Source: Octopus vulgaris
Lineage: Eukaryota
Direction: 5' to 3'
Assembly: GCA_951406725.2 (NCBI GenBank)
Contig: OX597814.1
Span: 116,684,001 to 116,748,000 of the forward strand
Length of the DNA stretch: 64,000 bases
A model generated the notes under the pieces. It searched no databases. It had not been told where the DNA came from and saw nothing but the letters and a program-made list of their open reading frames with translations. Each line of letters begins with the position of its first letter. Within the stretch, counting starts at the first letter, position 1. The translations under genes were made by a program, and so were the position numbers. Below are positions 57,341 through 62,142 of the stretch, one piece after another.

Positions 57341-58364
57341 ATGGCAGACATTTTAACTACAACAGAGTGACCACATAGCCGCCGGAAATAACGTCTGTCA
57401 ACATATCCTGTGCAATAAAAGAAAACGAATTTTCAAAACAATTTTACCGTATGTGGTTATATGTTTAAGATGCAAAAAGACGCAACTAAATGTAGAGGAC
57501 ATAACAGTGTATTACAATAGATTTCTATTGTGTGATGTCACTTCGTAATCCAAGTAATCTAGTGTAGAAATGATTGCCGTTGTATAAAAGTATTTGATCG
57601 GTAGCGTTACACACCAGTGATATCACTCCTAACATCCTATAATATTCCATGTTGAATTCATGGTCAAATGTTGAAAGCCGAATGTGTGAAATTGATAGAC
57701 CTTTCGAGGCTAAGATGAAGAGCCAGCACTTCCTAAATATTATCAACAATGAAACTAAATACTTAATTAATTTATTCGGACATCCTTCTATTCCTGCTAA
57801 TATCAGGAGCGTTATTCACATGAGACTATTTACACAGTTGCTTGACACATAAGAAACAGCAAAGCAATACGTTGTAAATGACACGCTGCCATCTTAAAAT
57901 GAAAGGAAATATCAAACCCTGTCCTCTTAGATACACTGCGTCACAATAAAACTGTTTCTCATGAATGTAAACCCTCGTGTCTCTTTCCCGTGCCCAGAGT
58001 TTATTTGAACGGAACCTAATACTCGCAGCAACAACAAAGGGTCTTTTCACCATGCGAACCATTATGGGCCATGTATATTCATTATTTGATGTATATTCAT
58101 TATTTGATGTAGTTGCGTAAGAGCTATGTACATGAATATCTCATACCACAGGAACACATATATATATGAATACCTAAACATGTATACATATTTATCTATC
58201 TGTACATATATGTATAAGTTCATACATGCGTACTAGCACACATAAATATACAAATATATATGGGCGTATATATATATATATGTGGGTGTGTGGGTGTGTG
58301 GGTGTGGTGGGTGTGTGGGTGTGGTGTGTGTGTGTGTGTGTGTGTGTGACCACGTGTGTATCGC

Positions 58365-58555
58365 TGGAGATTCCTTTTCCTCCGTCTTCCCTTCCTTAGA
58401 TCTTGCCTTTCCCTATGTTTCTGACGAAGAGCTCGGCTCGAAACATTAATTCCTCCTTTCTTTCCTTTCCTTTCCTGAGCGTCCATAACACTATAATTGT
58501 TCTACGTCCTCGCGTTGTGTTTTCTCTTGGGGGTTTTCATGTTTGGATTAACTGT
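58365..58555 (+). mobile_element. ~200-bp CT-rich non-autonomous element with HHR motif (58417-58452); second copy at ~61650-61830
   Basis: gttt-CTGACGA-a-gagc/gctc-GAAA-cat-TA; the copy has tgttt-CAGAAGA-a-gggc/gctc-GAAA-cg-CA-aaaca; shared ttcctccgtcttcc and ccctgagc. Confidence 0.7.
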
Positions 58556-58631
58556 ATGTATATACGCCTATGCATGAAAGTATTCATATGTGCGCGCCTG
58601 TAGCTATATATATATATATATATATATATAA

Positions 58632-59129
58632 ATGATTGAGGTGACTATTCGCAATTTACAACCGAATGGCAACAAGTATAGTTGTCATTAAAATATGGGT
58701 GGGTCTTATATGCAGTAGCATTGCTAGGAATAAGACTCAAAACATTTCTTAACCACGTCATGGCACTTCTGTAACGACTGACAAGGGAGACAAGCTCCCT
58801 ACAGGAAGCGGTTTTAAATTGCGTGTAGTAACTTTAATAATCTATAATCCTCACTTCACCATTTTCGAAATTAATCGAGGTTTCCTCTCGTGTTCTCTAT
58901 AAGACTGACAATGTGAGTTATATTTTTTAAACCTCAGCGAAGGAGTAATGAGCCACTGACGAAGATCAATCAAATCTGAAATCGGCGCTGATATGACTCC
59001 ATCTTGCTAGCAGTAGGGAGCTTGTGAGTCGCAAGAAAAGTGCTCTGACGTGCTTAAGAGTTGGTTTGGCTCTTATATCTAGCAATGCTAGTGCTGGCTA
59101 GCACCCGCACTCCCTTTAGTGACGACTAT

Positions 59130-59130
<1 letters not shown>
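58632..59130 (+). mobile_element. ~500-bp highly self-complementary HHR-containing element (candidate retrozyme / viroid-like RNA)
   Basis: Inverted complementarity 58677-58802 vs 59013-59130 and 58635-58664 vs 58809-58838; HHR inside; (TA)n on the left, RTE tail on the right. Confidence 0.7.
58950..58999 (+). ncRNA. Type I hammerhead ribozyme, intact core
   Basis: gagcca-CTGACGA-agat-caatcaa-atct-GAAA-tcggcgctga-TA-tgactc; all three stems form; AUA cleavage triplet. Confidence 0.85.
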
Positions 59131-59206
<76 letters not shown>

Positions 59207-61576
59207 TTAACTTCCGCTTTCCATGGGTTGAACGGTTTGACTGAAAACTGTCAAGCCGGGAGGGTGCACCAGGCCTGAATCTGACCTGCCAAAGTTTCTA
59301 CGGCTGGATGCCCTTCCCAACACCAACCATTCCGAGAGTGTAGTGGGTGCTTTTTACGTGCCACCGGTACAGGAATCAGTTAGTCGGAACTGGCATCGGC
59401 CACGCTTAAATGGTGCCTTTTACGTGCCACCGGCAAGGGTGCAAGTGAGGCGGCTTTGCACCGACCACGCTCGAATGGTGCATTTTACGTGCCACTAGCA
59501 CAGTTTCCAAGTAGGAGGTACTGGCATTGGCCATGCTTCAGTGGTGCTTTTTTCATGCCACCGACGCAGGTGCCAGTCAGGCGGCACTGGCATCGGCCAT
59601 GAATACGATTTCACGTCTTCATCAGCTCGGCATATTGCCCGACGATTGAATTGTACTTTTATATGGGCCATTTATACGAGCTCATTTGGCTTGCCGCGTC
59701 TCCTGAAGCACTGCATATCGCCAAAGGTCTCTTGTAATTACGTCTGTGAGGCCCAACGTTCGAAGGCCGTGCTTCACCACCTCATCCCATGTCTTTCTCA
59801 GTTTCCCTCCACTCTTAGGGTGTGACACTTCTTCACACATCTGATCTCATCCATTCGCAACACATGACTATACCAGCGCAGTTGTCACTCTTGCACTTCA
59901 TATCTCGCACTTCCTATGTCCACCTTTTCTCACAAGGTGCTAATACAGTGTCGTGTATGCACACTGAAATTTCACATCCAGTGGACCATACTAGTTTCAT
60001 GTCTTTCAATCATGTCCTCAGCAGTTACAGCCCATGTTTCACTGTCGTGTAGCATGACTGTTCGCACACAGGTATCATACAGTCTACCGTTCACTCTGAG
60101 CGAGAGACCCTTTGTTACCAGCAGAGGTAAGAGCTCTTTGAACTTTGCCCAGGTTATTCTTATTCTAGCATCCACACTCTTAGAGCATCCACTCCTGCCA
60201 CTGACTTGGTCACCTAGGTAACGGAAGCTATCAACTACTTCTAGTTCTTCCCCTGGCATGTGATGGAATCTGTTTTCTCTACATGTTCGGTGTTAATTGC
60301 ACCTGTGCATATGCCACACAAAACACTAACTTCTCCGTTAAACATTCTTTGATATTGTTGCACCTCATATGTGCCCATAGCTTACACCATGTACACCTTA
60401 TGAAGTTTCTACCTACGCCTTTTCTACAGATCGAGTAGGGCCATCTACCTGAAGAGACTTCTGATTTGTCTGCCTTCCTACTTCTAAGACTTTGGTTTTT
60501 GCTTGGTTGATTCTAAGGCCCTACGATTCTAGACCTTGCTTCCACACTTGAAACTTCTCTATTTCTTGTAGTGACTCAGCTATTACAGCAAGGTTATCAG
60601 CATAGACGAGCTCCCAGGACATCCTGTCTTGAATTCCTCTATTATTGCCTGGAGGATTATGAGGAATAAGAGGGGACTATGTACTGATCCTTGGTGAAGC
60701 CCTGCTTCTATCAATAATGCTTCACTATACTCGTTGCCAACCCTCACCTTACTGAGAACTTCCTTGTACATGGCATGTATAGCTCTCACCAATCACTCAT
60801 CTGTCCCTAGTTTCCGCATTGGCCACCTGATAAGGGATTGGTGGACCCTGTCAAAGGCTTTCTCCATGTCAACAAAAGCCAAGTACAGAGGTTTATCTTT
60901 GGCTAGGAATTTCTCATGCAGCTCTCTTAACAGAAATATAGCATCAGCAGTGATTCTCCCTGACACAAACCCAAACCCTAATTAGTTGGGCTATGGTACT
61001 CCCCGTGACTTTCATCACCTCATCCAACAATTTGATACCTTTGTAGTTATTTCAATCTAATGCGACACCTTTACCTTTGTAGAAGTTGACTGTTGCTGAT
61101 ACGGTATTAATTAGGTATGACTTCTTCATGTATCACCTGGTTAAATATGCGGGCGACAAGATATAGCCCACATTGCCAGATATTTTAAGCAGTGATACTC
61201 CATAGGCCAAGGGCTTTCCCTGTTTTCATACCCTAATTGCGTTATCTAACAAGGTAGTGTCAATTCGAATGGCTGGTCTCTCGGTTGGGCCGACATTTGG
61301 CAGACTCTCTATTCATTCTCTTCATTTAGCAAACATTCGCAGTGGCTTCTCCAAGACTCTCTATTTGCAGCATCATTAAATGCAAGTGAGCCATCATCAG
61401 GACACATTTCTTTCCTATGACATCGCGATTTCCTCTCACACACTGTCTACCAATTCGAAATACTTCAAGTCTTTAGTGCTCACGATGCAGAACATTGGCA
61501 ATTATTTCTCATCTGCTTCTCCTCTGGCTGAGTAAACCTGTTTACTAGCTTCCGTCCTGGCGATCTGGTACATTTC

Positions 61577-61579
<3 letters not shown>
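59131..61579 (-). mobile_element. Degenerate 5'-truncated RTE LINE with repetitive 3' UTR and (GAC)n(GAT)n tail
   Basis: LYLAFVDMEKAFDRV, GLHQGSVHSPLLF, YADNL, VVDSFRYLGDQV, SETWAV; 3' UTR with tandem ttttacgtgccacc units. Confidence 0.92.
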
Positions 61580-61626
<47 letters not shown>

Positions 61627-62142
61627 CGAAATGTAGCTGGATGTGGTCTGTTGGCGAGTTTCCTCCGTCTTCCTTTCCTTTTGAACTTTCCCCTGTCTAC
61701 TGTTTCAGAAGAAGGGCTTTGCTCGAAACGCAAAACATTCCTTCTTTCCTTCCCTGAGCATGCATATACCACATTCTCGCACTGTTGCTTTTTCTTGTGT
61801 TATTTCTTGTTTTGTTTTTTATATATATATGCGAACTACCTGCAACCAATAAATTAGTGACACGTAGGTCTTAATAACCACACCGGATATCCATAATTAA
61901 GGATAACTCCCTTAGATTACACTGGCGGTCAACTAGTCGAACAGACAGACACGTTGAAGTCATGCTAATAACTAAGTACGAGACCTTAGATTCAACCAAC
62001 TTCTTTTCTTCATCTACCTCACAATGGATTTAATGAACTTTGAACCTACTAAGACGTTTGAATCACTGAACATTTTCTTTTCCGGCTTCTCCCTCTACCT
62101 TTCCCTCTATTCTCCACTTCTGTCTTCTCAGCCTTCTTCGCT

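Follow-up and report, generated by a model that had tools for sequence, protein, structure and literature searches.

A dispersed, non-coding hammerhead repeat of Octopus vulgaris, probably a non-LTR retrozyme, with the insertion footprint of Penelope-like elements

Animal non-LTR retrozymes, as described in the accessible text of two papers (PMC7229834; bioRxiv 10.64898/2026.07.22.740005), consist of a non-coding, self-paired, low-GC unit of 150-450 bp that carries a type I hammerhead. The units form head-to-tail repeats, long tandem arrays are typical, and mobilization by Penelope-like elements (PLE) has been proposed. For Penelope-like insertions, the available portions of PMC8557442 and PMC3846280 report 5' truncation, partial tandems, a head-to-head inverted 5' copy, a (TA)n bias and a tail of 30-40 bp, which is often found at one end only. 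According to the accessible part of PMC11167929, this tail corresponds to two start sites of the reverse transcriptase (RT), and the Penelope-type protein cuts and extends both DNA strands.

We analysed a window of 64,000 nucleotides from the genome of Octopus vulgaris (contig OX597814.1, positions 116,684,001 to 116,748,000 of the forward strand), in which the stretch 58632-59130 had been annotated as a hammerhead element. Very probably, this locus is one old, two-armed insertion of a non-coding hammerhead repeat of about 342 nt, a non-LTR retrozyme. A Penelope-like RT and endonuclease likely copied it from RNA in multimeric or circular form, and a multimeric template fits as well as a circle. 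Judged from its sequence, the repeat represents a new family within the animal non-LTR retrozymes, with putative cleavage and putative circular RNA, and this family works like a non-autonomous Penelope derivative. Our searches of published papers (article text, no repeat libraries) revealed no report on a retrozyme from a cephalopod.

Viroids and viroid-like circular RNAs fall into the same size class, are non-coding and carry a hammerhead, and viroid-like RNAs are recognized as rod-like circles with a ribozyme in each polarity. The octopus family differs from them in being a genome-encoded, dispersed DNA repeat, the rod does not belong to its unit, and no hammerhead core motif was found on the minus strand of 58627-59130.

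With the retrozymes of PMC7229834 and bioRxiv 10.64898/2026.07.22.740005, as far as their accessible text goes, the octopus family shares the type I hammerhead, the non-coding, self-paired unit of low GC content, the head-to-tail repeats and the proposed mobilization by PLE. At the family level, we found a hammerhead core with three stems and a non-coding unit of 150-450 bp with a GC content below 45-50%. In contrast to the described elements, the octopus copies are mostly dispersed partial tandems with no long array seen, the family is old and decayed, and the window locus has one hammerhead. Inverted arms and tails are present in the octopus family, but the accessible text of these two papers describes none for retrozymes. 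With EN+ Penelope-like elements (PMC8557442, PMC3846280, PMC11167929, each in its available portion), it has in common the 5' truncation, the partial tandems, the head-to-head inverted 5' copy, the (TA)n bias, the optional and often single-ended tail of 30-40 bp, the two RT start points and a hammerhead in the repeat. Unlike these elements, the octopus unit lacks an RT/GIY-YIG open reading frame, its hammerhead is full-size rather than minimal, and no sequence link to an autonomous family was found among the GIY-YIG matches and upstream flanks considered below.

Layout of the locus and the repeat family

A search of the animal's own genome (2.8 Gb, 227 contigs) gave 666 candidates; 40 of them were scored and yielded 125 matches. 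These other copies matched letters 178-499 of the 58632-59130 stretch on one strand and letters 1-179 on the opposite strand. Pattern and DNA searches led to at least 147 distinct dispersed loci, which were fetched; all locus counts are lower bounds, with true loci (e.g. L137, L150) having been lost when duplicates were removed by a shared 40-mer. Mapping and alignment of the copies yielded a family unit of about 342 nt (332-347) with a GC content of 38-43%. A typical copy begins with a 5'-truncated partial unit. A full unit follows, from which the sequence continues for about 40 nt into one more unit, and the copy ends in a microsatellite. The first-pass annotation had assumed a viroid-like unit of ~500 nt. 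This size does not hold, since the rod included in it derives from an arm that is specific to the locus and missing from 111 of the 147 loci.

The family comprises two subfamilies, A and B, whose column majorities are 87% identical. Its copies deviate from the column majority by 6-16% and are about 10% decayed. CpG columns diverged more strongly than the remaining ones (20.5% vs 9.3%), the spectrum of substitutions is rich in CpG changes and symmetric between the strands (G>A 232, C>T 226), and the decay looks neutral. Four DNA searches, each with 40 scored candidates, yielded neither young copies nor long arrays. Direct chains of more than 350 nt, i.e. over one unit, were found in 51 of the 147 loci. 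One of these 147 loci (L021) is a full dimer with two intact hammerhead cores 345 nt apart; its longest stop-free run is 63 aa. In the available portion of their paper, Li et al. (bioRxiv 10.64898/2026.07.22.740005) call a retrozyme locus active when it holds two consecutive units with complete hammerheads, an arrangement that, among the 147 loci, occurs at L021 only and is lacking at the window locus.

At the window locus, a direct unit and a reverse-complement arm are joined head-to-head (Table 1). The inverted arm begins 10 nt past the cleavage site in family numbering and does not contain the hammerhead. It deviates from the family column majority at 15.8% of its positions, the direct unit at 14%, and the latter has suffered a deletion of 9-13 nt near 59022. 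Over their common part, the two arms are 73% identical, which is below the mean identity between other copies (80%). The tail of the inverted arm is composed of a junction segment of 12 nt (58665-58676) and a repeat of the first 38 nt of the unit (58627-58664). The absence of an open reading frame was confirmed, with no frame longer than 62 aa at the locus.

Table 1. Features of the window locus (positions in the window)
Feature	Positions	Strand	Basis
Left-hand insertion target, (TA)n microsatellite	58605..58630	.	Sequence
Inverted arm truncated at its 5' end, family positions 196-383 (covers the 3' half, the junction and the tail)	58627..58810	-	Alignment
Tail of the inverted arm	58627..58676	-	Alignment and pair count
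Direct unit, family positions 1-335, 3' end without tail	58809..59130	+	Alignment
Type I hammerhead motif	58943..59000	+	Core letters and stems
Separate decayed LINE-like insert outside the family, (CAT)n/(CGT)n end against the unit	59131..61579	-	Sequence

The unit had been described as sitting in (TA)n. This applies to its left end, but the right end adjoins the (CAT)n of the LINE-like insert, and (TA)n comes back near 61580; the LINE-like element sits in the right-hand TA tract. Three-frame translation of this insert revealed broken RT-like motifs, and its part 59206-59700 is common to 24 of 215 fetched loci. An insert ending in (CAT)n directly at a tail-less unit end was seen in 2 of the 147 loci (window 59131; L135:1530-1560), and (CAT)n lies within 30 nt of 3 of 233 piece ends as compared with 14 of 11760 in the background. 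This may reflect LINE targeting or a common microsatellite preference. A second abundant and unrelated repeat is located at 58350-58535 (+), ends on (TA)n and contains a minimal hammerhead-like motif (58421-58443). It has 2600 candidates in the genome, the best 40 of which are 87-90% identical, looks like a Penelope pLTR fragment, and has a more diverged look-alike near 61650-61800.

The hammerhead motif

The locus had been credited with a complete and intact type I hammerhead at 58950-58999. All core letters are indeed present (CUGACGA at 58956-62, GAAA at 58978-81, an AUA site with the predicted cut after A58993) and are framed by stem I (58950-55/58994-99, one C.A mismatch), stem II (58963-77) and stem III (58981-92), which is a 12-nt palindrome in the family. 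Intactness does not extend to the stems: the letters at 58953, 58967 and 58984 are unlike those of 28-29 among 29 other copies, and all three weaken a stem. Rfam called no hammerhead family, either at the gathering threshold or at E<=10. Nearest-neighbour folding, which leaves out tertiary contacts, disfavoured the active hammerhead in the window copy and in nine others at a cost of 5.6-13.8 kcal/mol.

Among the first 30 copies, 15 retained an intact hammerhead core, and in subfamily A the hammerhead diverged by 8.9% as compared with 10.4% for the rest of the unit. Selection on the hammerhead of the window copy was considered and rejected, this motif being conserved no better than the remaining unit.

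Between the subfamilies, we found compensatory pairs in all three stems: each stem contains one pair in which both partners have changed (G-U/A-U to U-A or C-G; A-U to G-C; G-C to U-A). The covariation thus comprises three pairs, which changed in about four events, and the two subfamilies compared are related. In the set of 45 segments analysed (24 of 33 from A, 21 of 25 from B, with large deletions and second copies left out), 56 compensatory cells were counted; shuffles gave 26 and slid controls 5-15. Because of these compensatory changes between the subfamilies, the ribozyme was likely functional in the master copies. The cleavage site reads AUA in subfamily A and AUC in subfamily B.

The change in stem III retains the 12-nt palindrome at a pair that is unable to close within one hairpin. 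By analogy, this would fit an action as dimer like that of axolotl retrozymes, the hammerheads of which act as dimers according to the accessible text of PMC7229834. Instead, the change could have arisen by quasi-palindrome repair. Loop II (family positions 160-163, window 58968-58971) occurs in two common variants that are mutual reverse complements (27 vs 15 of 89 pieces), likely a micro-inversion.

Since the window locus holds a single hammerhead and the inverted arm has none, a monomer cannot be freed here by double cleavage, and the locus is unable to yield a circle on its own. For the same reason, a read back-joined at 58993, which the first-pass annotation had put forward as diagnostic, is ruled out as a product of double cleavage at this locus. 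The window copy is a dead product and no source of circles. Among the sequencing runs listed as holding the sequence of the window copy, there was no RNA run. Diverged family pieces occurred in contigs of three of four RNA-guessed runs and ran on into other sequence; such contigs give neither strand nor level nor circles, and no unit-length circle joint was interpretable in them. At L004:1746-1797 of the unit, the contig depth was well above the rest in three RNA-guessed runs, perhaps due to further sister families.

Rod, crossing helix and proposed switch

A more far-reaching proposal was that the locus encodes a viroid-like RNA of ~500 nt, which is selected for its rod and has two mutually exclusive folds gating self-cleavage. 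The helices themselves are real. The long inverted repeat, first given as 58677-58802/59013-59130, was recovered as 58677-58810/59005-59130, and the crossing helix was located at 58627-58664/58809-58846; by geometry, the two exclude each other. The rod (helix 1) consists of 92 Watson-Crick, nine G:U, five A:C, 19 transversion-type and ten gap columns, the crossing helix (helix 2) of 30 Watson-Crick, three G:U, one A:C and four other columns. Folding gave strong structures for each of the strands (z = -7.8 for plus, -7.1 for minus), the plus strand being better folded by 14 kcal/mol. Strong predicted folding of both strands is as expected for any DNA inverted repeat.

The argument for selection on the plus-strand rod had relied on an excess of G:U wobbles and on like-with-like mismatches. 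At the locus, 12 G:U compared with six A:C pairs lean in this direction but fall short of significance (two-sided p 0.24). When we extended the tally to 17 other loci with overlapping arms (L114 was excluded as complex, and four loci had no arm overlap), we counted 95 G:U and 96 A:C, and thus there is no G:U bias across loci. The like-with-like mismatches are ordinary transversions. Moreover, selection on the rod is contradicted by the majority of loci that do not have an inverted arm at all, by the variable arm lengths among the rest and by the identity of the two arms, which is lower than the average for unrelated copies. Four derived letters, one of them private, are common to both arms. 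They speak for the rod and are weakly consistent with copying from one template.

The conformational switch is not supported by the predicted energetics. Forcing helix 2 raised the ensemble energy from -177.8 to -146.7 kcal/mol, a penalty of ~31 kcal/mol, and its pair probability was 0.0. The predicted cost of folding the hammerhead was 13.2 kcal/mol in the rod state, 13.2 kcal/mol in the helix 2 state and 13.1 kcal/mol without the arm. A third hairpin had been reported to overlap stem I. Its inner 7 bp (58877-83/58929-35) form with probabilities of 0.32-0.54 but stop before stem I, and the outer part, which overlaps stem I, has a probability of 0.0. None of the 29 other copies makes more than five of the seven inner pairs, and the predicted hairpin relies on letters private to the window copy. 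For the whole unit, RNAalifold found almost no consensus structure; the circular fold of the family column majority gave a z of -6.9. Taken together, we consider a selected viroid-like rod with a switch very improbable.

The left arm is complementary to the 3' half of the unit and, via its tail, to the first 38 nt of the unit, which accounts for both the rod and the crossing helix. As read from the alignments, both helices are insertion by-products with one cause. The inverted ends and the TA context of the window locus are also what an ordinary MITE with decayed terminal inverted repeats would leave. This identity was rejected, and we give it practically no chance: the copy architecture contradicts it, with most loci lacking the inverted piece, with variable 5' truncation next to fixed 3' ends and with partial tandems, and the hammerhead carries compensatory pairs. 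A fixed target-site duplication would be masked by the microsatellite flanks.

Insertion footprint, candidate partner and proposed course of insertion

An inverted piece is present in 36 of the 147 loci (23 of the first 100), in each case scored on the 5' side, and its length varies. The 3' ends fall into two classes that lie about 35-50 nt apart, namely family positions >=375 (71 of 100) and 330-350 (16 of 100). Among the 26 two-armed loci in which both ends could be classified, 24 carry the tail on one arm and not on the other (Fisher p 2e-5). One of these is the window locus, with a tailed left and a tail-less right arm. Of 118 family loci, 89 have a microsatellite no more than 25 nt away from the 3' end, as compared with 387 of 2360 background windows. 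A pile-up of 5' ends at the cleavage site was looked for and rejected, just two ends falling on 186/187. 5' ends are scarce at positions 156-185 (0 of 100 and 2 of 52 in two tallies), which is suggestive and confounded by locus recruitment. At four loci (L059, L094, L112, L057), the inner breakpoints are near mirror images (243|243, 93|87, 164|155, 255|266), as though both arms had reached one common 5' template end and stopped there, or had folded back.

These data agree with the earlier suggestion of a hammerhead retroelement family possibly mobilized by a PLE RT: the family is non-coding and bears a Penelope footprint, and its mover was likely a Penelope-like RT. An identical footprint would be expected if the unit were a solo pseudo-LTR, i.e. 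a 3'-terminal piece of an autonomous Penelope-like element, now extinct, that was amplified as truncated copies and never existed as circular RNA. The lack of a sharp pile-up of 5' ends at the cleavage site is in line with this reading, as are the accessible text of PMC11167929, by which insertion in vitro does not depend on hammerhead cleavage, and that of bioRxiv 10.64898/2026.07.22.740005, which derives retrozymes from pLTRs. However, the sequence upstream of a full unit is the unit's own 3' part and never a shared coding body, about one third of the loci (the 51 mentioned above) hold chains longer than one unit, and the hammerhead is full-size with a long stem I instead of the minimal PLE type. 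We therefore regard a solo pseudo-LTR as improbable.

As regards a partner, the own genome contains many GIY-YIG matches, several of them in frames of 781 aa, and one of these carries both RT and GIY-YIG. No unit-like sequence was found in 13 GIY-YIG loci out of the 148 matches listed, and the 400-nt upstream flanks of 118 loci revealed neither a shared upstream body nor an autonomous partner. At L213:1245-3590, L214 and L215, we observed Penelope-like open reading frames that are 771-781 aa long and combine an RT with a GIY-YIG at the C terminus. One open frame of 781 aa recurs in many Penelope-like copies, likely a young family, and these 5-kb loci do not contain a canonical hammerhead core.

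For the preferred reading, a two-armed retrozyme insertion, the following course may be proposed. A tandem master would have been transcribed, its hammerheads, possibly acting as dimers via the palindromic stem III, would have cut the transcript to unit length, and the unit was possibly ligated into a circle. A Penelope-type protein would then have cleaved a (TA)n tract on both strands and primed one cDNA per end. The cDNA of the left arm would have started at the tail point (~383) and halted after 184 nt, that of the right arm would have started at the tail-less point (~335) and halted after about 322 nt. Finally, the 5' ends of both would have been joined. A more specific version of this reading, which we put forward tentatively and consider rather doubtful at present, takes the family as a fossil record of the Penelope machinery copying a small RNA circle. 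Here, a dimeric RT would prime one cDNA per end of a double-strand cut at two fixed sites of the unit (the 24 of 26 loci), go around the circle more than once, across the ligated hammerhead junction, and seldom stop in the ribozyme core, and the palindromic stem III, kept through a double change, would mark a dimer-acting hammerhead.

Rods at loci of this kind call for caution, being insertion by-products and not selected RNA structure. The rule of one tail per insertion directly predicts what should be seen in the in vitro Penelope system described in the accessible part of PMC11167929. With a protein-free hammerhead repeat that bears every Penelope insertion mark, the octopus family lends structural support to the proposed partnership of retrozymes and Penelope elements, and it extends the animal retrozymes to another lineage.
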